From Psammoneis japonica (Eukaryota): DNA of 64,000 nt. Where the stretch lies: the NCBI GenBank assembly GCA_008632985.1, contig QPGO01000049.1, positions 186,001 to 250,000 on the forward strand, written 5' to 3'. Position 1 is the first letter of the stretch. Each line of letters starts with the position of its first letter. Below, piece by piece: positions 2,129-63,714 of the stretch. A program made the position numbers and the translations under genes. The notes under the pieces were generated by a model, which did no database searches, was not told where the DNA came from, and worked only from the letters and a program-made list of their open reading frames with translations.

Positions 2129-2143
2129 TTCACTCTAAAGAGT
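2128..2143 (+). promoter_or_regulatory. Primer-binding site complementary to the LTR (putative self-priming PBS)
   Basis: ATTCACTCTAAAGAGT is the exact reverse complement of LTR 1924-1939 (ACTCTTTAGAGTGAAT). No tRNA-type TGG PBS is present. Confidence 0.65.
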
Positions 2144-2214
2144 CACAAGCATGCAAGTGAGACAGCTTGCCATGCCAAGTCTACATTCTCTTGAAGAAAC
2201 AAGCAGCCTGCAAG

Positions 2215-7679: not shown

Positions 7680-7685
7680 GCAACC

Positions 7686-9054: not shown

Positions 9055-9066
9055 GTGGCAGGAGTG

Positions 9067-9410
9067 TGTCGGAGCAAGTTAGACGAGGGCATCAGAGAAC
9101 CTGGAAACAGTTGAAGTCTGTGGACATTTGGCTCCTGATGTGGCCTGTCTGATGATGATGTGTTCTTTGTCATTGCACTGTCATCCCCAAAATGAAGTGT
9201 TCTCACTCTTTAGAGTGAATCATCTGGTGTGTCAACCATTGTCATCGGCACTGGGTGGCATCTGTTGGGGCCAAATGCATTTGGTGCACGAAGCTGTTGA
9301 ACAATCTTCGAGGCAAACCACAGCCACACAAGCAGCCAGGACGTGCACATTGAGAGCAGAGGAAGCTTTGTGAGATTCCCTTTTGCCGACATTAACACGT
9401 TGGTTCAACA
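9067..9410 (+). repeat. 3' LTR
   Basis: TGTCGGAGCAAG...GGTTCAACA followed by TSD CCAAC. Confidence 0.95.
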
Positions 9411-39317: not shown

Positions 39318-40236
39318 GACTTCGTTCGTTTTTGAAATTTGTGAGAGCACCGTTCTCGTTGACCGCTGTGAATGCTAAAATGCTTGAGGGGTAATACCGT
39401 TCCGCTTCTTTTTATAACGTCTTTGTTCGAATGTACTGCAGCTTACAGCAATTTCTAAGTGGAAAAGATATTTTGGGATCGGTACAAGACAGAAACAAAG
39501 TCATTATTACTACCCCTTTTATTCAGGACCATGTTCTTCATTTAGACATCGCTTCGCCACCGTTACGGTACAATACAAAAGTGTACGGTCACGTAACATG
39601 TTTCTTGGTCGTTTGAAAGTGAATGACTTTTGGCTGGTGCGTGTCCAGAACTCCTCCTTGGGAGGCTTCTCATTGGTTTCTTTGAACAGGTATATCCCTA
39701 CGGTACAGTACCGAAAACTACGACATCGAAAACGAACACAAGACAGAAACAGTCATTACTATCAATCCTCAGTACGTAGTTGTTACGATCAACGCTTGTG
39801 ACTTTCCGGGTCATTACAAGGTGTTTCCACGAATTGGAAGTAATCGGAGAGATTATTACAGCACTTGCTTCGCATCGGTCAGAAGTTTGGCCAAACATCC
39901 CGCTACATAATGTTTCAAGAGGATCTTGTGCCGTGCCACGACCGAGCTGATGTGAACGGGGTTGGATTTCGGGACTCGATGGTGGTGTGCCTGAGCTGTG
40001 TTTCATGGGGCATTCGATCGGTTCGTTTTTGTTCACCGTGGCATCCTCGCAGCTTTCGCTGTTATATGGCCATTCAATTGGCTCATTTCATGGCTTCTCC
40101 TCCCCACTCGTTGCAGCTGACGATCCTCGCAGCTCGCAGAGCACGGAAGTCAAGATCTTCAAACTAAACCACAAAAATAAAATCGAATTTGGTGCTGAAA
40201 CCTCTACTACAAATGGAATCCAACATCCAAAACTCA

Positions 40237-42461
40237 TCACACATCTTCTTCGACGGCTCCCTTGTCCTTCAGCATTTCCAAAAGTGTCCCTTCAGTCAAT
40301 CCATCAATCATTCCTTCGGAGACATCTAAAATCCAGTCCATAATATCCAGCGGATCACTAAGCCGCCCTACACCGTCCCCTAGACGATTCACCACGTCAT
40401 ATCGAATCGGTTTACTATCCCCAATAGGGTAGAAATAGACATCAGGGACCATCTGAATATCCAAATAGTTTTGACCACGAATCTCATTCTGTGTCACGTC
40501 CATCTTTGTCAATTCAATGAACGAGTTCCATTTTAGGTATCGCATTAGACGAGAAAGCTCATTCCATAAAATGGAGAAACGTTTGCAATGACCACAGGTT
40601 GGAGCGTAAAAGAACACAAGAACGTGTTTATCACGCGGACCGTCAAGGACAAGCTTTTCAAACGTTTCTCCCGTCAAAACTTTGACTCCGCTTTCGTTTT
40701 CGGTCAATCCAGCGCTTTGAGATTGCAAGACAGGAGCTAGTTGGTTGTCCCAAAAAGCCTTCAAAAAGCGTTCAATGGACGATGGCGTATTATGGTTCTC
40801 CCCGAAAATGGAGTCCGTGTCAAGGTAGTATCTTCCTGTCCCACCAAAGCGTCGATCAGTGATGAGGAGGGTTGGCAGCAGGGCAGGTGGCGCTTCTTCC
40901 ATTTCCTCTGTTTCCTTTGCCTCTGTCACTCTCACATCCAGCGGTGTCCAAATGTCAACTCCAAACGTATTCATAATTCGTGTCTCTGTACTCGGAACCA
41001 CAATGCATACCATATCGCTTGACTCCGCTCTGTGGGTATGGCATGCACGACGGAAATTAGCAACTGCGCGACGGACGGCGAGAAGCTCCGTATTGGCTGC
41101 CATTTCTTCAGTCGCTCCATCCCATTCAATGACAATGTGCATGTCAACAAACAACACCGCATGGACCCGGCGAGACACCGCAAAGGCCATTGGTGCTACC
41201 GTCTTTCGGTCAAACCAAAGAACAATTGGAGTGGCTTGACGAACAACAAACTGCGACATTGCATTGACATCATCAGACGGCAGGAGATGTGCAGCATCTT
41301 TACTCAGATCAGACAAGCTATGACTTGTCCATTCCGTCTTGTCATCCGCCATGAGTGCAATCACCTCACCGTCTCGCGTCATGTCCAAATGGTCGCACTC
41401 TTGTACTGCAAAAAAGGCAGTGTCTCGACGTTGTGCCATGGTTAGCGCCAACTTGTCGTATTCATAATACAAGTCAAGCTCTTGGTCTGTTGTGTTTTTT
41501 CTGCATTGAATAAACAAATGAAATGGTTCGTCCTGAATATTGAGCAACCAGTCCATGTACCACTTTTCATTTGGGCGCAAACCCGGCGACACGGCCGGTA
41601 AAAGCTGATTCAACAAGCCACCAGCGTGCGCCTGCATAAAGGACAGTAGGTCCACAGATGAAGTCATTTCAAACACTGGATAATCTGATTGGTAATACTC
41701 TTCCTTATTCTTCTTGTCGTGACCACTGACGTAATACAGAGGACTCAATGAGTATCGATACCAATTGTGAAGAACAGTCTCTACAATGTTGCTTGGCAAT
41801 GTCTGCAACCCTTCATACTTCAACACGTCAACTCCGACTTCGCCGGTTTCATAAAAGTATCCCCGCACAAAGAGCAACACGGGCACCTCGTCCGTGTTGA
41901 GTTGGTCCAACACCCAATCCTTCTTTTCGGAAACATCCATTTTGGCAAAGAGCGGCGGTACGACTTGATCCATTATCGGAGCGGAAATAAGAGCAGCGGC
42001 CTGCTCGACCTTTTCAATCAAAACCTTGCTGTGTGGACAAGAATGTGAGTACACAACAGCAAGCATAAGAATTGGCTGGGCGGTAGCCGGCATTGCCTCA
42101 AAGGCATCCAACAAGCTGTTGGCTGTAGAGAAACAAATTAAATGCGTTCAGTTTGCACAAGAAAACTCAGTGCGACTCGTTTCAATACAATGATTGACTT
42201 ACCATTTTTCAGCACCAACAGCCCGTTTTCTTTTTTTATGTCCTCCGGAGGATCGACAAGTGAAGAAGTGCTTGTGCCCTCGTTATGTCTGAGTTTCGAA
42301 CTGTCGTCGGCCTCTCTGGCGTTATTTTCCGGTGTCACCGAATCGTTTGCCACCGCCGTAACGCTTATCAGACAGGCCAATAGGCCTAGAAAGATACATA
42401 TGGTGGAACGAGGTATGCCATTGCAGCTTCTCCTACCAAGAGAAGTGATAAGCAGCGCCAT
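40237..42461 (-). CDS. Protein disulfide isomerase-like/thioredoxin-domain protein; intron 42123-42202
   Basis: N-terminal hydrophobic signal, degenerate first Trx site (SCPHS), C-terminal FYAPTCGHCKRF. The splice restores the frame. Confidence 0.9.
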
Positions 42462-42559
42462 GTCTCTCTCGTTTTGCGTTGCTGATTGTGAGTTTTGTGC
42501 TGAGGGCTACGTACAGTGCAGCGCGCATCGCGCGCGTTACTGTATTGTAGTTGCTTGCC

Positions 42560-45500
42560 AGCTCCCCTTGTTTTTGTTTTCTTCTTTTGTGTGACCTCAT
42601 TTGCATTGGCGAGGCTCGCTTACAAGCCTTCCTGCACACACGACAAACCCTTTTAATCAACCCTGCTGGTTGCCTCTTGGGAAGCTCAAGCACCCCCAAT
42701 GGTCGATCAAGCAGCACTGACTCCAACATGTCCAAGGATGGAGACCGTGGAGAGATCTCATCACCCCCCCAGATTTTGGGATGGTGGGACAGACACGTGG
42801 ATGTTCGTGTCCAAGACACCAGAAAAAGTCCTGGTGGACCATGAGCATGAGAAAAAGCATTGGCACCTCAGGCCCTGGCTTGAGCAAAGATGTCTTTTTG
42901 CTCCCTTTGTTGTGCCATGCAAGAGGGGGGCTGATTGGCAAAGAGAGGCCAAAGCGGCACTTTGCACAATCTCTTTTCCGCCAGCCAACAAGTGGCAGAA
43001 GCCACATTTGGAGGCATGCAGCCATGTCAATGCTGGAATGAGCATCACAATGGTGTGAGTGACTGTGTGCATTGCATCAGAGGATCGTGCATCCCCTCAT
43101 CTCAGATCAGCTCGAGGCATGATCTCATCCAGTGGGAAGATGGTGCTGGTCTGTCACTTCTTTGCTGACACTCAAGGGCCTTGCTTGAGCCAGGTCTCAC
43201 CCCTGACCAAAAATGTGATCCCATGACAACCATGTCCACACAATTGCAATGGTCATGGCACCAGAAAACACTCAAAATCTGTGCACAGATGAAGAAAACT
43301 GAGTGCAACAACTGCCCCTTGCTCACATGGCTGCATCAACTGCATGATGCCCATTTCCCCATAAAAACAACAAAAACAACTCTGACATTTCAGTCATTTG
43401 TGATGCAATGAGCCATGTGTGCTGGTGCAACAATCATGATGAAAATTCACTCAGAGAAAAAATCTTCTTGAAATGGGGGTTTGGGCCAAACGTTTTTGCG
43501 CGCTGCTTTCCCATGCTTCCCCACTTGGCAAAGCACCCTCAAGGAATTGTTTTCACAAAAAACCATTGACACTTTGCATCTTTTGCTTTTTGTGTGAGCA
43601 ACATGATTTGGGTGCACCTTGTGTCCAAAAAATTCCTTTTTCAGAATTTCGTCAACAACCCAGCAAAGTGATGAAGTGTGGCGAAATTTTTTAAATGTAG
43701 AATTTTGGTGTGCAAAGGACAAAGTTGGGTTTGTCATCAAAACACAAGTGCACAAAGTGTCAACCATCACAATGGCCAAAATCAGTTCCTTGAGGTTGCA
43801 GCCCGTCACTTGCAAAGCACAGGAAAAGCATGATGATGAATGGGATTTCCTGCGTGATTTTCTAAATAAATTTTGCACCAGAAATTGGCCCTGCACATGG
43901 CTTGTTGACTTGTTCCAGACTTGGGTGGGAGGAATGCATGCAAAAAAGCCCCTCTTTGCATGAAACACATGCAGCTCAAACTTTTGGCGCCATTTTCAAA
44001 AGCGAAAACATGACAATTTTCAAATGTGTTGCTGTGAACACATGCAGAAAGGTCTCGTGCATGCAATCATGCATTCAAAGCTGATGATGGACCAAGTTGT
44101 TGACTGCCAAATGATGCTGCAAGATGAGAGCTTAGTTTTTCTGATGAGTGTTTTGTGATTGCACTTGCGTGCAAATGAAAACATGAAGCAAATGTTCTTG
44201 TGCACAAACAAACTCTTGAACAACAACAAATCATGTTTTGTTGCAATGCTTCAACGCAAGTTAATTAATCTCAATGGATCAAGCAAATCATCCATTGATG
44301 ACAAAGTTTGAGAAGACCTGAGAGAAAAAAAGTTAAACTTGGCACATGCGATGGCATTGACTTTGGACAATTTTTCACTGCTTTGTTCACACAAAGAGCT
44401 GAAACACTCAAGTCAGTTGATGCCATGGAGGAAATGCACATGGAAATGGAAAAGAACTTGCCTGTGCTTGGAGGCTGGCAAATTGTGAGCAAAATGAGGC
44501 TCATTGAATGTTTTTCTTGCACTGCACTGGAGCCTGTGCCAAGCATCTTCATTGTTGTCATTGACAACACAGATTGCACAAAATGCTTTAGTCATCATTG
44601 TGTCATTCAACTGCTCACAAGGTTGAAAAGAGGGCCATCATGGTTGCTGAAAGCCATGGCCATTTTGGCTGTGAGTTGGTTTGAATTTCATCTGTTCATT
44701 TGACTCTTAAGACATTGTTGTGATCATGACAATGCAAGATCAATGATGCTGAATCAAGCACAAAATGTTTGTCTTTTTGTGTGAAAAGGGGCATGTGCAC
44801 TCCACCTGAGTCTGGAACAAGTCTGTTCTGGAAAGATGTCCCAGTGCATTTTGCACCAAGTGTGCATGCAAACAACACGATGATGGCAGATGTGCCCTTC
44901 ATTCTCAAAAATGCAGCAAGGCAGCCAGTTTTTTTTTTCACAATGTGTGTGACAGGCTTTTGTGTCCTCTCAGTGATGTCATGAGACAAGATGCTCTGGT
45001 CTCCCCACCTCCACTGCTGCCCTCAATGAATGGCACTTTGGCCATTGTCTCATGTTGTTTGCACTGTGAGCTCAAAATTTGCACACTGGCAATTTGTGTG
45101 TTTTTCTACAAATTGCATGCAATTGCACGAAATTCTGTTTCATTGTTTGAGCCAAAAATTGTGTGGTTCATTCAAACTTCTGTGAAATTGACAGAAGCTG
45201 AAGCTTTGAAAAACTGTGAAGTTCAAAAGTCAGAGGAAAACAAGGAAACATGAATTTTTTCATTTTTCCTGCACCCTTCTGCATTGATTGTGTCAGATTT
45301 AGAGTCATTCACCACTCAATGGTTGGGTCGGGTGCAATTTTTGTGTGTGGTGATGTCAGCTGCATCAGTCTTGTGCTGATGGCAACCAGACAAAGCATGA
45401 ACAAAAAACACAAAAGGCAGAACAAACAAACAAACATTCTCTGCACTCCGCACAACAAAAGCAGATTCACAATGTCACAAAACAACATGCACAGACGGCG

Positions 45501-46760
45501 CAAGTGCATCGGTCAGAGCACAACAGAGTTCTGTTGTGGCCCCACTCTCTGCCAGCACAGCACACTCTACAAGCAACAACACAACAAAAAGCCACAAGAG
45601 TTGTTTTTTTATAACAGAAATTGTGGAAGCCTGTGCATGTGTAGAAGCATTGAAGTGAGCAGCAATGGGTGGCGCGGGAGGAGCTGCAGAGGTGGGAGGA
45701 AAGAAGGGGAGCGCAAGACAGCACACAGGGCATTTTAAAGAAGGAGTGGGGGGAGCAACAGGAGAAGGGAGGGATGAGAGACATCAGACGATGTGAGCAG
45801 CGGAATGATGAACAATGTTGCACCCAAGAGTTTGCACAGCCCATTGGGAGGGAGAGGCAGAGCGATGAGAGGAGACAAAGCAATCGGTGGTGAGCTGCTG
45901 CCAGGCAGAGTCAGCAGCAGGAAGCAAAGCAGCAGGAGAGAAGAGAGTGCAGAAGAGGGTGTCAAAGGATGTGGCAGAGGTTTGTAAAGAGTGGGGATCA
46001 GGCCAGGGAGGTTTTGGTTGAGAGAAGAGAAGGCAGGAGAAAGGAGGAGCCGAAGAGAAAGCGATGGGAGAGAAGCAGCCAAGGCCAATGAGGTGGTCGA
46101 TGGCAAAAGGGAGAAGGAAAATCCCAGAAGCATTGAGTGACTGGATGGTGAGAATGCCATCGGCAGAGGAGGAGGAAGGGCCCAAGAACTTGGATCTCGT
46201 GCTTGCATGGTGTGCCTTGGTTAAAACAGGAGAAAAGGGTGCAGGCAGACCAGGAGGAGGGTGAGGAGAAGCTTTGGGAATGGTGACATCGATGGCAATG
46301 CACTGATGCTAGAAGGAGCAGAGGTGGAGGTGGGAGGAGGGATGGAAACGCCAACATTGGCTGGACAAAGAAGAGGCTGTTGTGGGAGAAGGTTCGCAGG
46401 TTCAAGATGGACGTCGGTGGAAGATCGACAGAGAGGGGAAAGGGGGCCGAGGGTGTGAGCGAGGGTGAAAACGGTGTCACAGATGCCATTAGAGAGGTTG
46501 GACTTGTGACAAGCCTTGCAGGAGAAGGCATGGTTGCTGAAGGCATCGAGAGTGGCGTGGCCACAAGGGCAGGGCGAGTCAACAAGGGAAGGAGCAAAAG
46601 AACTGGGAGGCAGAGCTTGCATTGAGCAGCTGCAGTGCATTCGTCAGAAGTGAGGCAAGAAGCGGGAAAGCATCAGGAAAGGGAGTGAAGCGGGAGGCTG
46701 GCTAAAGGAGACAGAAGAGAAGGAAGAGCAACTTGGACATCGGATGGAGCAGCGGAAAGG
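42560..46760. other. TpA/CpG-depleted hypermutated repeat zone 3
   Basis: Same signature, starting about 100 bp upstream of the PDI-like start codon. Confidence 0.8.
43440..45000 (-). mobile_element. Degenerate ORF remnant, possibly a DNA transposase (piggyBac-like?)
   Basis: Chain of broken minus-strand ORFs with a 'VWNKS..HV' motif and a Cys/His-rich end. Similarity is weak and judged from memory. Confidence 0.2.
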
Positions 46761-46780
46761 GCGGCTGAAAGGGTTCGCTG
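45900..46780 (-). mobile_element. 3' fragment of a non-LTR retrotransposon with restriction-like endonuclease (CRE/R2-type)
   Basis: CPCG..LDAFSNHAFSC (CCHC), then 'SNGICD', 'EP.NLLP..P..CPANV' (degenerate RPAD) and a downstream IDVT. Confidence 0.6.
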
Positions 46781-46987
46781 TTATGGTGGGCGTGGCAGAG
46801 CAGCACAACATCCGGGATCCGGGCTTCTACTGTGGCCTGGCTGGCTGCGCCCACCGCCCACGCGGTTGATTTTTTTTTGGCGAGAATAGAGATGATGATG
46901 ATGCATGATGACATGAGGAGGAGGAGTCGATTCGCAGAAGCATTTTCTGCCTAATTGGACTGCGATAAGCTCGAGGCTGAGTTCACC

Positions 46988-48536
46988 ATGTCAAAACTAC
47001 CGCAAGCCGAAAACCTGTTGCGGGTGCTAGTGGAACAGGTAAGGACACATTTCCATTCGCTCAAGAATCCTTCAAAGGGGGGGCATTCAAACCGAAAGCT
47101 CCACAGACTCAACTTCAAACTCACGTAAGCTGATCGCCTCTTGTTTGAAGCAAAAATGGATAGAGGCGACGGAATACATTCAAATGCACCCACAAGCAAT
47201 ACATGAGATAACAACTTTGTCAGCTGGTAAATCTATTCTTCATTTGGCCTGTCATGACGGTTTCTCTGACGATGAAGACGATGAAACGGATCGGATCGAG
47301 ATTTCCCGTCAAGCATGTGACTTTGTGCAGTCATCATTTGATGCAGCTTTCAGTGTGCCCAGTTTGGACTCATCCGCAAAACGGGCACTCGCACGATCAA
47401 TGTTATTTTGCCGCGACAGATGTGGAAATACACCGCTGCACGCACACTATGGCCCGGCGAATCCAGCACTGGTAGAGATTCTTCTGGATTCGGCTCGAAA
47501 GATCTCCCCCGCAACTCCGTATGAATTGGTCACTGCTCAAAACGACAGAGGCGCGACAGTATTACATTACATGTCCGAGGGGAGGTGCCCGGACCAGGTT
47601 GTGGAGCTTCTAATGACGTGTTGCAGGGACGCTCCGTCAGTTGATCCCACTTTAATTCTAGATAAAGATGGTGACTCTATTCTAACCTGGGCGAGTGCAT
47701 CGGATCTCTCTCTGAGGCGTTGGAAGCTGCTGTTGGGACATGGCACTGGAGGGCTTGTTCATAAAAATGATGACGGTGTGTTTCCGACTGATGTGATGTT
47801 TTTGTATGCTAGTGATTATGAGAGACCGCGAGAGTCTGTCTGTGAAATTGTTGATGTCATGTTGCGTGCTCACTTTGGAAAACTCGAAGCAGCATCAGAC
47901 GACTGGTTTCCGCTTCATGCTTTAGTGCAGGCGCCCTTTTGTCGCCCGTACGTGTTAAAGGTTCTCCTTGAATTATCTGACTGGAGCAATCAGCTCTTAA
48001 CCTTTGATCATCAAGGCATGTTGCCACTTCACGCGGCGGCCGCACAGCCCTCACCAGAGCTGCAGCTGAGAGCCAACCAATCTCCGCTGACTTCGAAGGA
48101 AGTGAGTGCCGTGCAGGTCCCGTGGAACTTGGACGTACCTCTTGAACAGTTTTTCCCAAACGATTCAGTCTTGTCGTGGGTTGGAACGGAAATGTTGAAA
48201 GGCGATACGAATATGATTCTTCTGCTGCTGAATGCTCGTCCTCAGGCTGCGGCGCTTCCAGCAACGACTGGTGGTCGGCTGGCACTTCACAATGCCATTG
48301 AATCGGGTCATGTGTGGGAAGTAGTAAGGGAGTTGTGGAAGGCTGTTCCAGATTCAGTGACTACTCTTGATCCAAAGACAAGATTGTTTCCATTCTTGCT
48401 GGCTGCGGCAGCTCCCGAGAAGCCTCCTTCGGACTTCGAGAGGATATCTAATGGTGGGCTGGATGCAATATTCGAATTAGTTCGCATTCGTCCGGAGCTA
48501 CTTCAGTCAGGAATACCCAAGCATTTTTCTTCCTAA
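46988..48536 (+). CDS. Ankyrin-repeat protein; intron 47039-47150
   Basis: SILHLAC, GNTPLH, GATVLHY, GMLPLHAAA, GRLALHNAI and C-terminal DPKTRLFPFLLAA. Exon 1 MSKLPQAENLLRVLVEQ splices in frame. Confidence 0.88.
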
Positions 48537-48681
48537 ACCAATTCAGCGGTCGAGGCCCATCTGAGAATGAAACGAAGCAAAGGTGCACAAGAATACTCTT
48601 GGAATCGATATGATGTAATAAATTTGTCATGAAATAGAGAACTTCGCCCTTCGGCAAGTATTATGTAACGCATAATTTGGG

Positions 48682-51600
48682 TCAGTGCATTTGTAAACCT
48701 GTCCGACTCTCCATATATTCGGGTCTCAAGTTGCTTCTCGTGATTATACCTACAACGGACTCATTCTTTCCCAGCACAGGTAGTGTTCGCAAACCAAGCG
48801 CTGTGAATAGTTTGTAGGCTTTTGACACGGGAGTATTTTGCACGACCGAATAGGCTCCACGATTCATTGCGGCCGCGACATCCACATTTTGTTCCCGCTC
48901 TTCTTCTTTGAGATTCACAAATGGAACTCCATTTTTGTCGAATGCCACCACGGTTCGCAGCATGTGAATGGATCCTTCCGGCATGGTCTCATCAACGCCA
49001 GTCATAATGACACCATTGCTTTGAGTACGTAACACATTGTCTCGCAGCCAACGATACTGATCATGCGGCTTGACTGTTGTTCGCGATTTGTGAGCATAAA
49101 TGTCATGGTCTCCAAGAAGTGCGTGTGACACACTCTGCCTAGATGCATGTAGCATGGCCCCTCGGATCATTGACTTCCTCGACGACCGTTCCCTCTTTGA
49201 CTCCACGTAGATTCCACATTCAAGAAGGGCAATCAATTGGTCTCTGCGAATCAAAATGATACTTTGATGAGTAGGAATATACAATTGAACAAAAAAAAAG
49301 AAAAGAATGCCAGTAAAGCTGGTACCTTCGAATGAATCCAATGTATTCCTTGGTCGACCGTTTCAAAACTGGGAAACCGTCAACATCATTTTCCTTCAGC
49401 AGGGACTCGATTGTGCCTGCTGTCTCGATCCCGTAAATGGTAATAACAGGGCTAGAGTACAAAGACAAATACATTTTCTTGTTAAGTTCCTATGCGAGAG
49501 CCAAAATAGAATTTCATTGGTGATTGTGCTTACCTCGTCATAATATCTGACACGGTTGGAATATCAAACGATTGTTTGATAAAGTGCTCAAGATAGGGAT
49601 AATGCTTCAGATGCATATTTATCTTACCATCGACAATGGTAAGTACGTGTTAGTTCTTTCAGCAAAAGCAAGACAACACTCTAGCTCTGAACTCACATGA
49701 TAGAAACCATCATTCAAGATGTCCGCCACATATCTAGCAACGTTTACGCTAATAATGAGCGGAAGCAAAACCTTGTAGTATGGAGGCAGAAATCCAGCAT
49801 AAGTGGGCATCTAGACAAAGAATAATGCGATCCTTTATTGACTGCATCCTTACCTTGACTTGCCCCGTCGCTTCCATCATGATGACACACAGGCTGACGG
49901 TTGTTCGCTGGATTCCCGCCAACATGGCCGTTGCTGCAAGTAAGGCAACGTGCGCCGGATTTGCATCTTCTATAAAGTGTCGTTGAATCATGATTCCGGC
50001 CCAGCCTCCATACAAGGATCCCGTCAAGAGAGTTGGCATGAACAAGCCACTCGGAATGGGCGTTCCAAAGGTAATCAGCATGAGAAAAAAGAAAATCGAT
50101 CCACACAACAACAATGTGCGAGCCTCAAATTGGCCTGGGTCGCTCAAAAGTGCATTCAGTGCATCGTCTGTGAAAAAGAAGGCAAGTTGGGAGAATTGTT
50201 ACGATTATGCAAGGGGTGTTTTCTCTTTCTCTACTTACCTCTCGACGCCTGAAGAATGGCCGCAACCTCATTGAATTGCCCAGGGGGACAGTTGAATCGA
50301 AGAAACTCTTGTGTCTGTTCAGAAGAGGCTTCTGCGCACGCCCAAGATTCCGGTAGAAGAAACGACGTCATGAAAGTGGCAACAGACGTGGCAAGACTAA
50401 CCAATAAAACATCCATCAATTTCAACATGTTACTTCTCTGCGGACGGAGACTGTAAAAGCGCGACCTAACACGACCCATAAAGCAATAAAAACTATTAAA
50501 AGCCGCACCAAAGAGCCCCCCGCCGATTCCGAGCAACACGTAAAACGCGACTTGTTTGAAGGTATGGGTCGGTGTTACAGAAGCATAGGACTGTTCCAAA
50601 CTGTTTCCCAACGCAAGAATGCTAAAGTTGCTCAAGTCTCCATGATAAATCGCAATTACAAACGTCCCCAACGCTGTGGCCGCCAGGGTTCGCCACATGA
50701 GCCGGAGCGTGTAAAAACTTGATGCTTCCTCAATGCTGTACAACAACCCTCCCACGGGTGCTCCAAAGGCCACGGCAAATCCCGTGGCGGCACCAATGGA
50801 AATCAAGTCACGTCGATCGGCATCGTTGCGAAAGGCGGAAAGTAAGGCAACCATTTTCGAAAAAAAGGTTCGTCCTTCACTAAGTCGGTCGCCCGCCTTG
50901 TCGTCCCACAGGGAGGTGAGAGAAAAGTTCTGGTCCGATAACGATCCCATATTGTCGTCAGCTCCACCATAGTTGACCGCTAGATCCGCGACGGTAAGCG
51001 AACCACGTTTACCGCCAAACAATGAACCACGCTTCTTGTCAAACAGTGCAGCCTTTTCGTCGTCTTGGTCTTCGCAAGCAACAGCTTTGGTCGTGTCGTA
51101 CAAGTTCGTTTCTTGGCGACTCATTTTGGCGCATCCAAACAAATTGCTAAATCGTGGGTGATTGGACTGGAAATTGTAAAGGGCAATGTCCAATCGGGTC
51201 GTCTTGGTGAGCCCCTGCCCAATAATGGCCCCAATATGGACACTGGGACCTTCGGGTCCCACGATTAGTCCAGAAGATACCGATAGAATGGTTCCAAAAA
51301 TTTTGGTTAACAAAATACTCGGGTTGGCAAAGGACGGGACGCGCGAACCGTTCAAATAGGCCTTGACCTCAGGAATGCCACTGCCAATGGCTCCCGGCGC
51401 AAAGTAGACGCACATGGCCGAACTCATCAAGACGAGACCTGCACTGACGAACGTCGAAATAAAAAAGACGTAGAATACTCCCAGTTTCGAAACTAGGTGC
51501 CGCGACAATGTGGAAAGAGCATGAAGAGGAAACTGCTGATCAAATTCTTCTTCATTGGCGGTACCCGCAATCCATTGCATGGCTCGATTGAGACGATTGA

Positions 51601-52018
51601 CTCGAAATTCGACAATGCAAGTGTTGCAATACACGATAAAAATGGCCAAGATGCCACATAACAAACCAATCAACAAGGTCAAGATCCACTGCATTAGTTC
51701 CTTTTCGTACGGCATGTTGAGCAACCGGCGTTTCTTTTTCGTGATTTCTTCTTCTTCTTGGGCCATTTCGTTAAAGGTGAAATAGCTCATGCTATCCCAG
51801 TGGTGTGTATCATCGTTGTACAATTGACACTTTTTCTGGAGACGCTTCTTGGTTGCCTCGATCCTGTAAGAATTGACGATGGGATCAAAATCTAATGAGG
51901 GAAAGACACCGCGAGGTGCAAATTCATCTACGCCAATATTCACTTCGCGAACAAGGGAGACGCGTGACCAATTGCTCGTCTTCACTGAGGAGCGTCGCCT
52001 TCGAGCTGCGGGGGCCAT
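48682..52018 (-). CDS. CLC voltage-gated chloride channel/antiporter with CBS domains (multi-exon)
   Basis: GSGIPE, GPEGP, GFAVAFGAPVGG, GLFMP signatures. C-terminal CBS motifs (GFPV, LGLRTLPV, VGIITR). Several introns between 49.2 and 50.3 kb. Confidence 0.93.
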
Positions 52019-52329
52019 GGTTGCTTGCTTCTTGGTTGTTGGTTTGTGGAACTTGTGAGGTATGAGGTGGTACAGGTCTTGGGTCTTCGCAGAATTCTGG
52101 GATTATGGGGTCTGGGGGTACCGGGTGGTAGGTCTGGGGTCGCATCCACTTTACAGTACTTTGGCTGCATTTACTTAGAGCCCCCCCACGAAATTCAACC
52201 TTTACTTATGCACCTGTGACCCCNNNNNNNNCCCCGCCAGTTACAAAAAATCCGTAGAAGTGACAGGTCGTCGCGCGCCACATTTCCCCCCCTTTTTCTG
52301 GCACGCTGTGAACGACCCGCATCGTTGTT

Positions 52330-55300
52330 GCAGGTGCGCATTTCACACTTCATCCACAGCTTTACTTTTCAACAAGGGTTTGTCAAGAGCCCCTTTGTGT
52401 TCAAATTGCCATGCCCATGCTTGAAACAGTGGGGCCAAAAAGCCAGTCAAGTCCTTTGGAACTAAAGAAGTTGAGGCAAAGTGCGCCGAGGCCGGCACCT
52501 CACCCTTTGAAGAAGAGCGAGCACGCCAGCTGACAGAAATATGGAAGAGCTGGATTTTGGTGGTCAACCTTCATGATGAACAAGGAAATGGTGAACAGCA
52601 GCAGCGACCCATTGGCAATGCAAATGTGCCAACAGATCACTCCATCTTTTGGCTGGGCGGCCAAAATTTGCTGGGGTGATGGTGCACTCTGGCGTGAACG
52701 CCAAAGTGGGCTGGGGCTCGAGTCAAGGGGCCAACCAAGTGTCTCAGCTGTCTGGGTGTCTGTGCATCTAGGCATGCCATCACAGGCATGAGACCAGGCA
52801 CTTCCACCTGACCAGACCAAAGAAAAACTGTTCTCCTGTCCCTGGAGCACATGCCCTTGTTGTTTGCAGGGCACACCTGTGCAACGGTCTCTGCAAGGAG
52901 ACTTGTCTGCTGCAGCATGTGAACAGTGGCAAGGTGTTGCACTGAATCTGGGCTGGAGCTCTGCTTGCCATGTTTGCTTGACATCATTCAAGCTCAAGTG
53001 TTCAGTCAGAACAAGAGCTGCTCGTTCTTGTCCAAATCCTGCCAGATTGACAGTCTTGACGACCCTCGTCAAACCACGAGCTGTCATCAAGCAACAACAA
53101 CTTCACAAGGACACAAGTGCATGAGTGATGACTGGAGTGGTTTCTGGGGTCCACTTGACAGCAAAGTCAGAAGCCACTCAGAGAAAGATGCACAGGTGAT
53201 GCACACAGTGTCAAGTTGTTGACATGGGGAGCAACGACCGAAATCAAAAAAGAGCTGGGTTTTGGCAAGCAACCTTCATGACAAATGAAAAAAACACCAA
53301 TTGGCAGCAGCAACAAATTGGCAGTGCAAATGCCAATGGATCACTCCATTCCTTGGTTGGGAAACAGAGAAATCCACTGGCATCAGCGGCACATTCTTGT
53401 GCGAGTGCCAAAGTGGGCTTGGGTTTGAGTCACACCAACCAAGTGTCTTGGCCTTCTGAGCATCTGTGCATCTGGGCATGCCATTGCATGGGAATGAAAC
53501 CAGGCACTTCCACCTGGCCAGACCAAAAACTGTTCCTCTGACCCTGGAACACATGCCCCCGTTGTCCACAGTGGCACCTGCGATGGTCTCTTCATGGAGA
53601 CTTGTCTGCTGTGTGTGGACAGCAGTGAGGTGATGTGCCAGGTCTGGGACAGAAGAACAAGAGTGGCTCACTCTTGTTGTTCAAATCCTGTCAACAGCCC
53701 ATGAAAGAGAGGGCAGCAAAGCAAGGTGATGCAGAAAGCAAAAGGAAGTTGATGAAGCCAATGAGCTCAAATGGAGGTGCAACCAGCACAAGCAAAGCAA
53801 GAAGATTTGTGAAAAAGCCACAACTTGAGGTGGCTGGCTTCAGAGCAAAAGCAAGCAAACAGTGGTGTGCCAAAGGCCCAGGCTGCAGGAGGAGTCAGAG
53901 GGCAATGCCATGTCACAAGAACCCAAATGCTTTAAACTGCAAGCTGCCAGAGAAAAGTGCAACTCATGATCTGAAAGATGCAGAGAGCAAGATTCAGCAA
54001 GCACTGCCACAAGATTGCAAAAACAATTTGAGTCATTGGTTGAAACTGCAGCATGCACAAGAATGGCCCACCATGCACCCAGGAATGTTCTGTTTTCAGC
54101 TTCAATGTGAGCCATTCAAAAATGTCACATCAGTCACAGCCAACAAAGGACAACAGGTCAACAGATGAAGTCATTTTCAAATGCTGGACAACCTGATTGG
54201 CAACACTCTTCCTTGTCCTTCTTGTCATGGCCACTGACACAATGCAGAGGACTCAGTGAGCAATGATGCAAGTTGTGAAGAACAGCCCTGCCATGCTGCT
54301 TGGCAATGTCTGCAACCCTTCATGCTTGAACACATCAACTCTGACTTGGTTGGTTTCACAAAAGCATCCTTGCACAAAGAGCAACATGGGCACCTCATCT
54401 GTGTCGAGTTGCTCCAGCACACCCAGTTGCTCCTTTTTTTGCACACATCCATTCCAGCAAAAAAGAGTGTCAGTGCAGAGTTTGATCCATTGTTGGAGCA
54501 GAAATGGGAGCAGTGGCCTGCCTTGCTTTTTCAATCAAAGCCTTGCTGTGTCAACAGAGTGTGAGTGCACAACAACAGCTGGCACATCAGCATGAGAACT
54601 GGCTGAGTGGCAACTGATGTCCTCACCTCAAAGGCACGCAAAAAGCTTTTGGCTGCAGAGAAAAAAGTTTGACATTTTCCATGCCCTTGCAGTTTTGGGC
54701 AATGTCGCTGCATTTAATCAAAACTTTAAATTGTGAAGAACAGTGAAATGAATGACAAAACTCTTCTGTTTGGATGAGCGCAAAAATGTGTGTGAGCTGT
54801 TTTGACTGTTACAGTTTTGTCTCATGACATTGCAAGCCCTCAAACAGATTTTTTACCTGCAGTTTGAAAAATTGCAAAGAGATCTGTGCCTCACAGAAAT
54901 GTTGATGACACATCTGAACTGAACAGGGCAACAAGGTGAAACAAGTGATGGACAGATGCGCACACATGGTGGGGATGCATGCATGCAGATGCACCATGGA
55001 AGAGCAACTTTTGGCAACAATTTCTGGTTCTTCAGCTCTGTTCAAAGTTTTGCATCATGCATTGGTTTTGTTGTCAGGGCTGATCACATTGCCCCATGAG
55101 CATCTAAACCAAAAGTCTGTGGGTCAAAATGTGTCAAGCTGAGTCATTCTTCTGAGTTGCTTGCAAAGAGGAACATGAACATTTTGCACTCAAATGACAT
55201 GGCAGTTGAACAGAGAAAATGCGAGGACAACAAATTTTGTCACATGGGTGAGGAACAAGTTAAAAGGTGTTCACTTCGAGCAAGAAAATTGAGCACCGCT

Positions 55301-55560
55301 TGCATCAATGCAATGATTGACTTGCCATTTCTCAGTGCCAACAACCCAATTTTCCTTCTTAACATCCTCCAGAGGATTGACTTGTGAAGAAGTGGTGCCA
55401 TCAGCATCTTTGACTTTTAAGCTGCCGGGTTCTCCGGCGCTGTTTTCTGGCGTGAAAAGCAAGTCGCTTGCCGTCGCTGGGCTTGTCAGACAGATCACAA
55501 CAGGCCCAACAAGAGACATGTGGTTGACCGACGCATGCCATTGCTGCTTCCAGTCACTGC
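52330..55560. other. TpA/CpG-depleted hypermutated zone 4
   Basis: Same signature; contains an internal duplication and a pseudogene. Confidence 0.85.
52610..53695. repeat. Diverged direct duplication (~52610-53040 vs ~53325-53695)
   Basis: Shared blocks GATCACTCCAT, GCCAAAGTGGGCT, CCAACCAAGTGTCT, CCAGGCACTTCCACCTG. Confidence 0.8.
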
Positions 55561-55620
55561 CAAGAGGACTGATAAGCAGCGCAGCGCCATGGTCTCTCTC
55601 GCTGTTCTGTGTAGCTCGAG
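54148..55620 (-). pseudogene. Hypermutated partial copy of the PDI-like gene 5' part, interrupted by a ~600-bp insertion (~54660-55265)
   Basis: 54148-54660 aligns to 41641-42130, and 55270-55620 aligns to 42150-42490. Peptide 'VLEQLDTDEVPMLLFVQGCFCETNQVRVDVFKHEGLQTLPS' matches 'VLDQLNTDEVPVLLFVRGYFYETGEVGVDVLKYEGLQTLPS'. Confidence 0.92.
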
Positions 55621-55800
55621 TGCAATGTGCCACCGGCACGACTGATCGCCAGCGCAGCCAGCGCGGTAGCGCGCGCGCGCGATCGGATTGAAACAGCAAA
55701 AGCGCCCAACATGGAAACCGGTGGCCTTTGTTGGCTTTTTTCTTTTTTGCTATCATACATTGCGGCGACGCATCGACAATGTCCGATTTTCAACTTGACC

Positions 55801-57063
55801 ATGGTGACGACAATAGCCATGCTTCGATGGTCTTTTTCATTGATGTTAATCATAACGCTCGTATATGTAGCCTTGATTCCAGAATGGCTCGAATTTAGCG
55901 ACATGAACGAATCGTTGGCAGATGCACCGGGCGAATTATTGCTTGGAATCAATCGTCAAGAAGCAAATAATGCATCAACACCAGAAGAGCCGTTGTTTGT
56001 TTCAATCAATCATCAAGAAGCAAATAATGTATCAACAACAACAACACAAGAGCCATTGTTTGTTCCGAGACTTTATCTTTGTGGCTGGGTCAATCCTGAA
56101 GACATACCAGGATTGAAGCTCCTCTTTCCCAACCACACGTACTTTCCCCTGAATGGACAAACCGGGCCACCAAACACAACACGAGCAAATTCCCATGATG
56201 TTTTGATATTGAGCGAATCACCTGCTCCCGCATGCAGCAGCGTTTGGACAAGCGCAAATAACGCATTTTTTGAATGGATGAAGAAATTTCCGGGCAAGGT
56301 CCTATCGCGGAATGGAGAGTCGAGACACATGTGGCGAGGACTACGCGGCGAGTACGAGAATCTTTACTTTATGGGCTATTACCCAGATGACGTTGAGAAA
56401 CGGACTATTCGTTTCATGTTTATGCAAATGATATTGCAGCAATATGGACCAGAATGGTGGCCCAAGTTGATGGATCCTGACGAAAAACCAGTCAATACGA
56501 AAGAACGGTTTCTCATTTATGCTGTTGGTAACTGTGTTGCCTATCGACAGGCAGCTATTTCTCGATTGGCAGAGATTGACACAGTTGATTGTGTGGGTCG
56601 ATGTTGTGGACAGCTAAACCGATCCTTGTGGCGATCGCTGCCGAGGGATAGTCCAATTCATAGCAATCACTGGGAAAACAACAGGGAAGGCTTTTCAAAC
56701 TACCGATTCTGTCTCGTCATGGAGAACAAATCTCAATCAGGGTACGTTACTGAGAAAATTTTGAATGCGTTTCTGGCGGGATGTGTCCCAATTTGGTACG
56801 GTACAGACGAGATTTTTGACATCTTCAACAAGGAGGCGTTCATCTATTACAATCCAGCCGACCCAGAACCAGCACTGGCTCGTGTTCGACATCTTGAGGC
56901 AAGCACGGAGGCATACGACGAAATCATGAAACAGCCCATCTTGGCGCATGGTGAAGAAACAATCAAAAAGTATTTCTCATATACGCCAGAGCTTGGTGGA
57001 GGAGAAGTTATCAAGAGAATCCATAGAATGATGAATCTTTCAACGACGGCTAGTAATTTGTAA
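55801..57063 (+). CDS. Glycosyltransferase family 10 (alpha-1,3-fucosyltransferase-like), type II membrane
   Basis: YRFCLVMEN..GYVTEKILNAFLAGCVPIWYG motif and an N-terminal TM segment. Start codon uncertain. Confidence 0.9.
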   Translation: MVTTIAMLRWSFSLMLIITLVYVALIPEWLEFSDMNESLADAPGELLLGINRQEANNASTPEEPLFVSINHQEANNVSTTTTQEPLFVPRLYLCGWVNPEDIPGLKLLFPNHTYFPLNGQTGPPNTTRANSHDVLILSESPAPACSSVWTSANNAFFEWMKKFPGKVLSRNGESRHMWRGLRGEYENLYFMGYYPDDVEKRTIRFMFMQMILQQYGPEWWPKLMDPDEKPVNTKERFLIYAVGNCVAYRQAAISRLAEIDTVDCVGRCCGQLNRSLWRSLPRDSPIHSNHWENNREGFSNYRFCLVMENKSQSGYVTEKILNAFLAGCVPIWYGTDEIFDIFNKEAFIYYNPADPEPALARVRHLEASTEAYDEIMKQPILAHGEETIKKYFSYTPELGGGEVIKRIHRMMNLSTTASNL

Positions 57064-57713
57064 GCGCCCAGCAAGTACTGCACAAGATAGCTTTACTCAT
57101 GGACATGGTTTGAGTGATTTGCACGGTGGGAAATGGATCAAGAATATGGATATAAAGCTTTTTGCTTGTTTGATAAGCAAGCCTCGAGGAAAGGAATATG
57201 CCTCCTTTTCTCACCCGGCGGTTCAACTGTAACCTTACAGTACGTAGGGCCCTAAATAACAAAAAGAAGCATTTTTTGAAATTTGAAATTTTGGTGAAAG
57301 AAAAAAGATTCGTCTTGGTCAAATGCTGCGCGAATCATCATCCTACTGCAGTACCTTAACCGGCCGAACCATGAGAGCGCAGCTATACTACTCTATGCTA
57401 CTACTAGCTAGGGCCCTACAGTAGTAGAGCTAGTAGTAGCCGGTCCATCCAGAGCGAGGTCCCAAATACCCAATCGCACTGATTGACAGACTGTTCTACT
57501 AGTACAAATTTATTCTACGTAACTTTCTTCGACAGTCTCACTTCCGAAGACGTCCCCCAACGCATTCAAAAACGTGCTTTTCTTACCAGGAGGACGAGAG
57601 ACGCAATAGAATAAACCACGGCAGGGACCTGCTGAAGGGACAGAGATTATTTGTCGATACCTGCACGAGCAATAGCAACTCTTCTGAACTCTTCTGGAGT
57701 ATTCGCATCATTC

Positions 57714-60767: not shown

Positions 60768-62936
60768 TTACTCTTCTTCTTCTACTTCCCCATCACGCGT
60801 CTTTTCCGGAGACGCCTGCTCGTGGAAACGCAATCCAGGAGAAATGGTAATATCGGCATACGGCTCGTCTTGATTCAACTCCACATAATCCCACGTTTTG
60901 AGCTGCAACAGCTCAAAAAACACCCCCGCCGCCGTGCGCCTCGAACGGCCATAGCTCAGCTTGTCATACGACACTTGCTCCGTGTCGTCTCGCATGGTGC
61001 GCTTGAGCATGCCCAGCACTTCCACCGTGTGTTTGTGCCACTTGGAATTGGCCGATACCAACTCACCACCCGCCTCTTGGCGCTCGTCGTCCATGCCCAT
61101 GTCATTGACGGGGCCAAGCGAAAACTCGGAATCGCGAGAACCGACACTGCGGGCGTCTTCTGGGCCTATTGAATAAGAATAAATTGGAATGTGGTGAGAA
61201 CAACACTCCGTACTTTGCAAAAGATAAAAATCAATATCAATAGAAAATACTCACTGTCCACCATGGCCTTGACCTCGTCGACAAAACCAATCTCGTCTCC
61301 ATCGGGATGCGGAAAGCTGTCCTCTTGATCAAATTCCATTTGCTGCGGTGGTTCGTCATCGACCGGAGGCGGAAAGTCGTCTTCTTGATCAAAAGCGGGA
61401 GCTTGATCCTCAAACTCAACCGGCTGCTCTTCTTCTTCTTCTTCGTCATTACGACGCCCCACTTCCACTTCTTCTTGTGCCGCCGCGTCTTGCATTTCCG
61501 CTTCCGCTTTGGATTCTTGTTGCGCTTCACCCGCGGCGCCGCGCATGGCAAAGGGAATGGGCTTGCCCTTGAGGATTTGCGTGTTGCGCTCCCACACCTC
61601 CAAAAGATCGGGAGCCATGCATCCGTCGTCCGCCAAGCCGGGGCGCATGAGAAGACGTTCATTGGAAAGGGACGACAAAATGATGGATTTGGGCTTGGGT
61701 TTCTTGCCGAGACCGCCGTCCAGGACCAAATCGCTCGTGTCGCGCAGCATTTGCTTGATGTAATCATTCGTGAGTTCCGTCGCGTCATTGTCAATAATAA
61801 CCTTGCGGCGTTTGCGCATGCGGCGTGGCTTCTCCTTGGACTCGCGCTTGCGCTTGGGTGACGATGACTCTTGTGTGTCATTCAACGAAATACCACCCGA
61901 ATCGTCCTGGCGTGCCTCTTCTCCCTCGGGAGACAGCGCCATGATGCTGCTTGCGCGATTCTGTTGCGAGCCGTCATCCTCAAAGGGGATATTGGAAATA
62001 TCGGCGTCGTCCTCAAACGCGGGAAAATCGTCGGGTTGGTCCTGACCGGGCGTGACGGGGCCCATGGAGGAATCATCCGCGGGTTTGGAGGGGAGAATGG
62101 AAGAGCGGCGGAGCTGTGAAGCGAGACAAAGCAACAGAAAAACGCCGTGAGCAACTCTTCAGTAACAACACACAACACAACAATAAACCTATATTTCAAC
62201 TCACTTGAGTATCCGACGTAAGCGAGTCTTCTGCGGCTCGCACGCGCTCCACATCCGACACTTGACTCTCATTGTCGGCTCGTTCCGTATCCAAACTGTC
62301 CTCAAAGACGTGACGGTCTTCATCCTCGGGATCAAAGGGAGCCCAATCATTCTCCTCTTCCTCTTGCTGTAATTGCTGCGCCTGTTGAGTCCCCATCATG
62401 GCACGACGAGCGTCGTTCTCGTCTTGCGGGTCATCTTCCGCCAAGACCCACTCGTTCGCGTCGTCGGCGGTTTGATCGAGTTCAAACGGAATCAACAAGG
62501 CCGCGCCCCAATCGCCCTGCTGGCCGCCGGCGTTGTTGTTGTGATCCAACAAGAGCACGGGCTGCTCTTCTTGGTATTCTCCAAAGTTGGCTACATTGCC
62601 TTCGGACTGACGTCGCTGTTCCAAATCAACCGAGGTCTTTTTCGCTTCCAAAGACGACGACCCATGAAAGGCCAGTTTGATTTTCACCATGGCTTCGGTA
62701 CAATCGTGCATGAGGTACTTGACCTTGCGGGAATAAATCCGAACCACACCCAGCAACAAGTGGCCACTGACACGCAGAGCAAGTGGAACGGTCGGATTGA
62801 CAATACTATCCACCGAAGCGGAAATGTCGGTATTGAAAATCTGGGGACGGCCCAGTTTCTTATCGCCCCAATGCGCCGCCAGCCAAACCTTGCCGAGGGG
62901 ACCTTTTTTCGCGAGAATAATTTGTGAATAAAACAT
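60768..62936 (-). CDS. RAD21: Cohesin kleisin subunit Rad21/Rec8 family (3 exons)
   Basis: N-terminal [43 protein letters not shown] and C-terminal [15 protein letters not shown] winged helix. Confidence 0.95.
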
Positions 62937-63714
62937 TGTATTGAAGCGTTTCTGTACAGTATGAGAAAAAGAAAGCGCAAAAGTGAGAAAGCGGTGAGAG
63001 AGCGAATAAAGCTGCATAAGGACTCGATTCTGAAAACAGCGCGCAGCGGCAACAGAACGTTTTCAAACTCAACAACAGCGACGCTTCTCCAATTACACAC
63101 AGAAACAACGACTCCTTTTCCAAATCACACGCTTCTACGTTAGACTCATAAACGACACAAGCAACTCCTCATCCGACTCACCTGTTGCTGTCGCTACGAC
63201 GACTCAGTAGGATCGTGTAGGGATTGTTTTTCGCTCGTACGGTGCGGCGTGTATGATACGGATTGCTGCCGCTCTCTCCACCACTCTCTCGAGTCAATTC
63301 AAAGCAATTTCAAACAATACGACGTTCTTATCAACAGTGCAGACGACGACGACGGTATGCTATAAATCAACAATGCAGACGCAATCGGCAGTGTTGTTGT
63401 TGTTGTTGTTGTTTTGTTGTTGTTCATGAAGTGAGCCGTGCTTTTTGTTGTGAAGCATGTGAGCCGGCGCGGACGTAGATCCTACGGAGACTTTGTACTG
63501 AGAATCATGTATGTACCTACATACCAAAAATCTTGTATGTAGGGATATACTAGATGCTCCGTAGAGCGCGCTGGAGGCAGTTTTTGGCGCGGCGCGGGTT
63601 CTCGTTCTGATCTCAAAAAAGAGCCAGAGAAGATAGATTGCACAGCAAAGTTTTGTGCCCCCTCTCTCTACTCTAGAGAGTAGAGAGAGTAGAAAGTCAC
63701 CTCGACACACCAAT

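Follow-up and report, generated by a model that had tools for sequence, protein, structure and literature searches.

TA and CG dinucleotides replaced by CA or TG in transposon islands, and in a gene copy lying within one of them, in a 64-kb stretch of Psammoneis japonica DNA

The window analyzed here, a whole stretch of 64,000 nucleotides, comes from Psammoneis japonica (contig QPGO01000049.1 of assembly GCA_008632985.1, positions 186,001 to 250,000, forward strand). It carries an intact host gene with a thioredoxin domain and, 12 kb away, a broken copy of the 5′-end of this gene, where almost all TA and CG dinucleotides of the parent are read as CA or TG. The gene and its copy have the following parts (coordinates are those of the window; O/E is the observed-to-expected ratio of a dinucleotide).

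40237–42461, minus strand: intact PDI/thioredoxin-like gene with signal peptide, the parent; unconverted (spliced contig and Pfam)
42203–42461, minus strand: parent exon 1, with ATG at 42461 (spliced contig)
42123–42202, minus strand: parent intron, 80 nt, GT-AG, phase 1 (one contig of run X2 joins 42122 to 42203)
40237–42122, minus strand: parent exon 2 (spliced contig)
54145–54669, minus strand: pseudogene piece 1, the first ∼165 codons of exon 2 and 17 nt of the intron; fully converted
54670–55249: insertion of 580 bp in the intron of the copy; converted (TA O/E 0.10, CG O/E 0.16)
55250–55677, minus strand: pseudogene piece 2, the remaining intron, exon 1 with start codon and 75 nt of 5′ flank; graded conversion

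The parent protein has a Pfam Thioredoxin match (E = 2.3e-16), and its best relatives were metagenome proteins with 27–39% identity. Although run X2 carries the label ‘DNA?’, introns 42123–42202, 49244–49851 and 50168–50238 are missing from its contigs (in the part 40000–52082 of the window), as in a transcriptome; its gaps in cover at 43005–46610 and 52621–55625 say nothing on expression.

Piece 1 was paired with 41638–42139 by both blastn and Smith-Waterman (528 columns, 499 of them ungapped and 409 identical), and piece 2 aligns to 42128–42536. Homology between copy and parent runs through the intron, 42123–42202 (the 580-bp insertion aside), and through 75 nt upstream of the ATG; therefore, the copy is a DNA-level duplicate of ∼900 bp of the 5′-end of the gene and not a retrocopy. 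A processed pseudogene, in contrast, would have neither intron nor promoter. The first-pass annotation had quoted sequences of gene and copy, both of which are present in the window, and had taken the copy to be host-derived and, as it retained an intron, not retrotransposed; we came to the same view, with an intact, spliced, PDI-like gene as the parent. Piece 1 carries frameshifts and, where the parent encodes P33, an in-frame TGA, so that the copy is dead.

A 12-nt direct repeat of parental GAGAAACAAATT-type intron sequence brackets the 580-bp insert (54658–54669 and 55250–55261); it arose either as a target-site duplication of unusual length or as a micro-duplication where a rearrangement was joined. 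No clear terminal repeats were seen in the insert. In the purine/pyrimidine alphabet, where transitions are invisible, no additional match to the parent was found leftward of 54145 or inside 54670–55249 (best scores 22–30, as compared with 21–30 for shuffled sequence). Contigs of a public run, with word depth ∼60, matched 53508–55022 and 54996–57485 with 0 differences; the run may be the sample from which the window was assembled.

None of the 20 parental TA dinucleotides aligned with piece 1 was kept: 10 became CA and 10 became TG, with one base changed per dinucleotide and no transversion. Parental CG dinucleotides, also 20 in number, were all lost as well (TG 12, CA 6, GG 1, TT 1). On the other hand, CA was kept at 36 of 44 sites and TG at 28 of 33, with none turned into TA. 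Thus, the first-pass claims that every TA had become CA or TG and that conversion of CG was near-complete were both upheld, the latter with 18 of 20 sites; the 525 bp of piece 1 contain 0 TA and two CG. Sites inside TA differed in 20 of 40 cases, as against 49 of 419 (11.7%; 31 transitions and 18 transversions) outside TA and CG (Fisher p = 3.5e-8). Nearly half of the changes at TA and CG sites (20/41) were A:T-to-G:C. Conversion in piece 2 was partial, with 10 of 14 TA and 9 of 24 CG turned into CA or TG; over both pieces, 30 of 34 TA changes were clean transitions (20/20 in piece 1, 10/14 in piece 2).

The duplicated part of the parent, 899 bp long, holds 37 TA and 49 CG (TA O/E 0.59, CG O/E 0.98), which is similar to the rest of the gene (0.47 and 0.99, respectively); hence, homology to the copy did not make the parent a target. 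In this sense the source gene was untouched and the process was asymmetric, as had been proposed in the first-pass annotation.

The direction of change was judged at the protein level from 19 outgroup proteins and 55 non-synonymous codon differences, as no close orthologue was available. In total, the outgroups sided with the gene in 217 comparisons and with the copy in 78. At Y106 (gene TAT, copy CAT) 17 of 19 outgroups have Y; at R126 (CGA, CAT) 13 of 19 have R; at P60 (CCG, ACA) 15 of 19 have P; the gene state was also shared by 17 of 19 at E43 (GAG, AGG) and by 13 of 19 at K64 (AAA, GGA). A few variable positions side with the copy: G97, V37 and Y125 (8 against 9). The outgroups thus support the gene states, rather than CA and TG, as ancestral, which answers the outgroup check suggested along with the original claim.

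The copy is not alone in its composition. Dinucleotide content of the window was bimodal, with four converted transposon islands (∼23 kb in sum of the 64 kb) alternating with ordinary DNA:

1–10500: converted island, running off the left end of the window; holds a copia element
15600–22800: converted island, with an N gap inside (21433–21624)
42600–46000: converted island, starting roughly 90–190 bp upstream of the start codon of the parent gene
52300–55500: converted island, holding the pseudogene (TA 0–2 and CG 0–5 per 200 bp)

We compared 23,311 bp of the islands with 27,905 bp of ordinary DNA. The O/E was 0.07 in the islands versus 0.54 in ordinary DNA for TA, 0.18 versus 1.00 for CG, and 1.83 versus 1.17 for CA and for TG; the remaining dinucleotides had nearly equal values. 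The islands have lost 33.0 TA and 45.6 CG per kb, and the gain in NCA of 41.2 per kb compares with 39.3 expected if all lost TA and CG had become CA or TG. Outside the islands, non-coding DNA (introns and intergenic sequence pooled, 4,188 bp) had TA O/E 0.64 and CG O/E 0.88, and three genes kept TA and CG at all codon positions, including 3-1 and 2-3; since both non-coding and genic DNA keep these dinucleotides, the bias is not genome-wide.

The islands are made of repeats, as indicated by summed word depth 2–6 times the baseline of ∼60 at 42404–46610 and 52020–53822. The left part of the island with the pseudogene is a diverged direct repeat of ∼704 bp (52532–52952 and 53236–53648). The copy is a bystander within this retroelement-rich island; the first-pass statement that the process is not limited to retroelements is thus true with respect to retroelement sequence, but the process itself is confined to retroelement-rich islands. 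At the right edge of island 42600–46000 we also saw purine-rich sequence (45900–47000; GC skew 0.41, AT skew 0.27) with intermediate TA O/E 0.21 and CG O/E 0.58.

The first island holds a retrotransposon that carries a record of the time of conversion:

1785–9410, plus strand: complete but dead Ty1/copia-type long terminal repeat (LTR) retrotransposon (LTR pair, target-site duplication, homologs of reverse transcriptase (RT)-RNase H)
1785–2128 and 9067–9410, plus strand: its LTRs, with TG..CA ends (LTR alignment)
1780–1784 and 9411–9415: perfect 5-bp target-site duplication CCAAC flanking the element
2904–5093, plus strand: gag–protease (PR)–integrase (IN) frame, PR and IN read by eye
5839–7212, plus strand: RT-RNase H frame (phmmer homologs)

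The TG..CA LTRs, the 5-bp duplication, a CX2CX4HX4C gag zinc knuckle (seen by eye in the frame 2904–5093) and the order PR-IN-RT-RNase H are all features of the Ty1/copia class. For the RT-RNase H frame, phmmer found 8,957 homologs (best E = 1.8e-120); a Pfam search with 20 island reading frames, those of the copia element included, gave no match. The two long frames have 0 Tyr in 1188 residues, as against a median of 3.3% Tyr in 150 homologs, and at columns of conserved Tyr (132 reference homologs) the element has Cys six times, His four times, Gln once and Tyr never. The ‘HMDDL’ of the RT was considered as a converted YxDD (Y-to-H) and rejected, as H occupies this column in 28 of 30 aligned homologs. 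The copia family to which 5839–7212 belongs natively has H-V-D-D in place of Y-x-D-D (28 of 30 homologs, P0150–P0179, all with normal Tyr content).

The two LTRs mismatch at 53 of 338 sites, and 26 of the mismatches fall within 13 dinucleotides that read CA in one LTR and TG in the other. As LTRs are identical at integration, discordances of this kind are to be expected where one ancestral TA or CG was converted separately in the two LTRs. By simple density arithmetic they imply ∼26 ancestral sites converted in both LTRs, as compared with ∼31 expected in unconverted DNA; thus, the element was essentially unconverted when it inserted. Two TA sites and ∼8 CG sites were converted in one LTR only, indicating that conversion of CG is slower and incomplete. 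Three other repeats within islands showed 10, 17 and 6 CA-versus-TG discordances; a repeat in ordinary DNA showed one among 10 double mismatches. Both strands were struck equally: CA to TG was 10:10 in piece 1, and both Cys and His replace Tyr in the copia element. By this evidence, conversion acts on chromosomal DNA, in place, after insertion.

The reaction at TA depends strongly on neighbouring bases. TA surviving in the islands was almost entirely within TTAA, for which the ratio of island to ordinary frequency was 1.54; the ratio was 0.47 for CTAA/TTAG, 0.18 for CTAG, 0.045 for ATAT, 0.016 for GTAC, 0.011 for ATAG/CTAT and 0 for ATAC/GTAT. For trinucleotides it was 0.03 (ATA), 0.05 (GTA), 0.15 (CTA) and 0.33 (TTA). 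In the comparison of gene and copy the flanks predicted which base had changed (Y, pyrimidine; R, purine): Y-TA-Y gave TG seven times and CA once, and R-TA-R gave CA seven times and TG twice. Counted on the strand with the A, change of A to G in piece 1 was found in 13 of 16 TAC, 5 of 12 TAT, 2 of 8 TAA and 0 of 3 TAG, as well as in 20 of 217 cases with a base other than T at −1; AA contexts were barely changed (AAA 1/21, AAG 1/24). This flank dependence indicates that the recognition unit is the one-strand trinucleotide T-A-Y (equivalently R-T-A) and not the palindrome as such. At CG there were weak flank effects only, with ratios of 0.12–0.37 across all 16 NCGN contexts. The difference between TA and CG in flank dependence, completeness and reach points to two processes in one territory.

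The difference in reach was seen at the right-hand boundary, where the copy faces an unconverted gene:

55708–57063, plus strand: GT10 fucosyltransferase gene, unconverted; head to head with the pseudogene

The copy adjoins converted DNA on its left and is split by the converted insertion, and its promoter-proximal end abuts the GT10 gene, toward which conversion wanes inside the copy; the zone stops just upstream of GT10. In piece 2, CG was mostly converted to about 55420 and mostly kept beyond, while TA was converted up to 55558; TA conversion thus extends ∼150 bp further than CG into the boundary zone. Conversion ceases within about 100–300 bp of adjoining unconverted genes. As contigs span both edges (40000–43009 and 54996–57485), the boundaries are not assembly joins. 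A single unbranched contig of ∼1.5 kb, 53508–55022, has near-baseline depth (72.7) and is fully converted.

The homologous stretch terminates, in parent and copy alike, at a short preserved (CG)n run (42529–42536 and 55670–55685), which lies at most about 100 bp from the island edge at the parent and in front of the GT10 gene at the copy. This run may be an unmethylated promoter element marking the boundary.

We consider it probable that conversion is confined to the islands, occurs in place and depends on location; this judgement is made apart from any specific enzyme. Within the islands both self-complementary pyrimidine-purine dinucleotides, TA and CG, have been turned into CA or TG by single transitions, with either strand struck and with the reaction stopping once the site reads CA or TG; the copy was rewritten together with its surroundings, and the expressed parent outside the islands was not. 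The target would be a chromatin domain of silent, transposon-associated DNA: location in this chromatin would act as the trigger, rather than the origin of a sequence or its homology to another copy. The change is irreversible, with loss of all Tyr codons, of most CGN Arg codons and of all TA-containing signals.

Deamination of 5-methylcytosine in silenced repeats is established in many eukaryotes and probably accounts for the CG half. For the TA half, a separate and faster A:T-to-G:C activity would be required; the reaction turns the A of T-A-Y into G (or, on the complementary strand, the T of R-T-A into C), with TAC as the best context and TTAA immune. As the enzymatic step we tentatively favour, at somewhat short of an even chance, a deaminase that is brought to silent chromatin and converts the adenine of T-A-Y to hypoxanthine. 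An adenine deaminase is preferred because the transitions are clean, and because the requirement for T at −1 and the preference for a pyrimidine at +1 are typical of a base-flipping deaminase; further reasons are the T-A-C context, which we take to be TadA-like, a report on ADAT2/3 and DNA, and deaminases of the cytidine deaminase (CDA)-like type in stramenopiles. The ADAT2/3 enzyme is reported to deaminate A as well as C in DNA (PMC10354150). The stramenopile deaminases, a CDA-like type with fused SAM and Tudor domains that is specific to this group, were described by sequence analysis, and the authors proposed RNA targets for them (PMC3239186). The full combination, where a T-A-Y-specific, chromatin-targeted DNA adenine deaminase or an equivalent A:T-to-G:C mutator works alongside 5-methylcytosine deamination to rewrite transposon-island DNA, is a possibility that we regard as rather doubtful.

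Several observations weigh against a location-dependent process of this kind or against its details. Leakage from a repeat-triggered process would likewise convert a bystander. 5-methylcytosine, silencing and deaminase are all features that we infer for this organism from its DNA. The directional flank rule is based on 17 sites, and the ratio of Cys to His at Tyr columns (28:23 in six proteins) is less skewed than the TAY rule predicts; also, sequence cannot tell A-to-G on one strand apart from T-to-C on the opposite one. At the DNA level, the signature has been documented for this window only. In favour of wider occurrence, seven of the 150 copia homologs (Logan, ENA, JGI/IMG) had <1% Tyr, five of these seven with the Tyr-to-Cys/His pattern; the signature is thus present in other public data, though the Tyr-poor homologs may come from the same species as the window. 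TA depletion was seen in 0 of 79 metagenome copia loci (TA O/E 0.36–0.90), a set for which a 3-protein alignment was used and which is biased toward intact elements. Two of these 79 loci, L047 and L050, had CG O/E of 0.0 and 0.3 with normal TA (0.71), that is, ordinary CG-only decay, and so offer a contrast to the double conversion in the window.

Of the alternatives to a location-dependent process, one would retain homology as the trigger: a process like repeat-induced point mutation (RIP) would mutate duplicated DNA, perhaps at the sexual stage, and the pseudogene would be struck by leakage from flanking repeats. The islands do consist of repeats (word depth 2–6 times baseline at 42404–46610 and 52020–53822), conversion is near-complete, as after repeated RIP, and into flanking DNA it fades over a few hundred bp; leakage into adjoining single-copy genes was reported for fungi (PMC2973834, PMC3105345). 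Nevertheless, we find it unlikely. The parent, 100% identical to the copy at duplication, shows no conversion at all, while classical RIP mutates both partners, and the chemistry and outcome are opposite: RIP creates TA, which is here destroyed, and part of the changes are A:T-to-G:C. The ∼1.5 kb of the unbranched contig at 53508–55022 is fully converted at a depth near baseline. Conversely, a very-high-depth element at 57456–57560 is unconverted, though an element of ∼105 bp may not be long enough to count. Editing of retroelement RNA or cDNA before integration, by ADAR- or APOBEC-like enzymes, with the changes then copied into the genome, would fit the fact that most island DNA is retroelement-derived; it predicts changes common to both LTRs and biased to one strand, was refuted by the LTR and intron tests (provided that the alignments are sound), and is given almost no weight. 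The LTRs of a single insertion differ by 13 independent CA-versus-TG outcomes, the converted pseudogene retains an intron and 5′ flank, the strands are equal (CA 10, TG 10), and fading follows position rather than the ends of elements. Islands are also the least constrained DNA of the window, as would suit a genome-wide neutral mutation bias masked in genes by selection; however, introns and intergenic DNA outside the islands have TA O/E 0.64 and CG O/E 0.88, and genes keep TA and CG at codon positions 3-1 and 2-3. A sequencing artefact of modified DNA, which we class with this bias as very improbable, is contradicted by contigs of word depth ∼60 that match island sequence exactly, by Tyr-less copia ORFs (open reading frames) in other public data sets, and by the indels and 18 transversions that mark the copy as genuinely diverged.

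Two further alternatives concern the TA half alone. It could be collateral of error-prone repair, with T:G mismatches from 5-methylcytosine deamination leading to a patch being resynthesised by a Pol-eta-like polymerase, with G wrongly inserted opposite T at TA or WA (W, A or T). TA and CG conversion do occupy the same islands, the error spectrum of Pol eta favours A-to-G at WA motifs in somatic hypermutation, and at non-TA sites of piece 1, A>G (9) and T>C (11) slightly outnumber G>A (6) and C>T (5). Yet the TA reaction is the more complete of the two and extends beyond CG by ∼150 bp at the boundary, whereas a by-product should lag behind; AA contexts are hardly touched (AAA 1/21, AAG 1/24); and the immunity of TTAA along with the zero for ATAC/GTAT is sharper than a polymerase error hotspot. 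We therefore hold this explanation to be improbable. The reaction could also begin at the thymine, if, in silent chromatin, a TET/JBP-type dioxygenase oxidised the T of R-T-A and the resulting 5-hydroxymethyl- or 5-formyl-uracil mispaired with G to give T to C. The motif reads equally well as R-T-A (ATA 0.03, GTA 0.05, CTA 0.15, TTA 0.33), dinoflagellates are described as hydroxylating thymine with a TpA preference, and 5-formyluracil is a mutagenic base. For diatoms, though, nothing in this analysis pointed to a modification of this type, and 5-formyluracil gives mixed substitutions, in contrast to 30 of 34 clean TA transitions; this route, too, seems quite unlikely.

The process nonetheless shares much with RIP of Neurospora and other ascomycetes: dense in-place transitions in chromosomal DNA, permanent inactivation of transposons, islands of aberrant dinucleotide content, and an effect on adjacent host sequence. 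RIP changes C:G to T:A, mainly CpA to TpA, so that TA is created and CA/TG removed; the islands have TA O/E 0.07 and CA/TG O/E 1.83. Half of the events in the window are A:T-to-G:C, unlike RIP. Where RIP mutates both duplicates, the parent was left untouched (TA O/E 0.59, CG O/E 0.98), and where RIP creates stop codons, the process in the window removes TAA and TAG. RIP is premeiotic, depends on a RID/DIM-2-type cytosine methyltransferase homologue and, to our knowledge, is known from fungi and not from stramenopiles. Relative to RIP, this is a form of transposon-directed hypermutation with the inverse signature, a second chemistry and no symmetry between copies.

Methylation-driven CpG decay resembles the CG half in being limited to transposon DNA (18/20 CG-to-TG/CA in piece 1), with little flank dependence, slower and incomplete; the TA half, more nearly complete and governed by a strand-specific motif of its own, is left unexplained by it. 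ADAR and APOBEC editing of retroelements similarly produces clustered transitions in retroelement-derived sequence, but its targets are RNA or cDNA prior to integration, and it affects a single strand, while conversion in the window is post-integration, on both strands and also in non-retroelement DNA. TadA, ADAT2/3 and the adenine base editors derived from them turn A into I, read as A-to-G, at A after T or U. The best context in the window, T-A-C (13/16), presumably matches U33-A34-C35 of the tRNA-Arg anticodon loop edited by TadA. Natural TadA and ADAT act on tRNA, however, and the DNA contexts reported for amphioxus ADAT2/3 are TCG and GAA (PMC10354150), as against TAY here; the resemblance may serve as a lead and is not a test.

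In the literature we found no account of TA-to-CA/TG conversion of transposon islands, but only fungal RIP, CpG and unrelated work (subscription journals and supplements lay outside the scope of the search). Known transposon-directed hypermutation (RIP, CpG decay, APOBEC) acts on cytosine, as far as we know. The enzyme behind the process has a substantial chance of belonging to a new kind. Motif-specific and near-saturating A:T-to-G:C conversion in silent islands would add a second chemistry to genome defence and extend such defence to stramenopile algae. If adenine deamination is the correct reading, the process would amount to an ‘inverse RIP’ and would be the first case in nature of genome defence by hypermutation of chromosomal adenine, and a T-A-Y deaminase would be a natural counterpart of engineered adenine base editors, of interest to base-editing work. 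The pseudogene and the LTR pair are natural experiments that fix polarity, timing and substrate; an enzyme or modification reading T-A-Y in silent chromatin thus becomes directly testable. Converted transposons lose all Tyr codons and escape Pfam, so that repeat annotation in genomes of this kind will miss them. One could also use island dinucleotide content as a possible mark of long-term silencing.

Other parts of the window deserve mention. The high-copy short element at 57456–57560 lies within unconverted TA-rich intergenic DNA; its summed word depth was ∼2400 against the baseline of ∼60, with many different flanks (run X1). A giant ORF on the minus strand, 24231–38783, contains 12 head-to-tail copies of an 873-bp unit with 99–100% identity (25921–35820), and cadherin-like/Big_9 domains were found in 36000–38783, the part given to Pfam. 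It is unconverted although highly repetitive (TA O/E ∼0.6, CG O/E ∼1.15), and it resembles a repeat protein that was expanded or homogenised very recently. A Rad21 N-terminal ORF, 62196–63017 on the minus strand, marks the source as a diatom or a near relative, with no closely related sequence in the database. It had two oomycete matches with 66–68% identity over less than half of the query; its best full-length relatives showed ∼55–58% identity over most of the length of the ORF, and the named ones among them were almost all from diatoms, e.g. Fragilaria, Fistulifera, Nitzschia and Thalassiosira.

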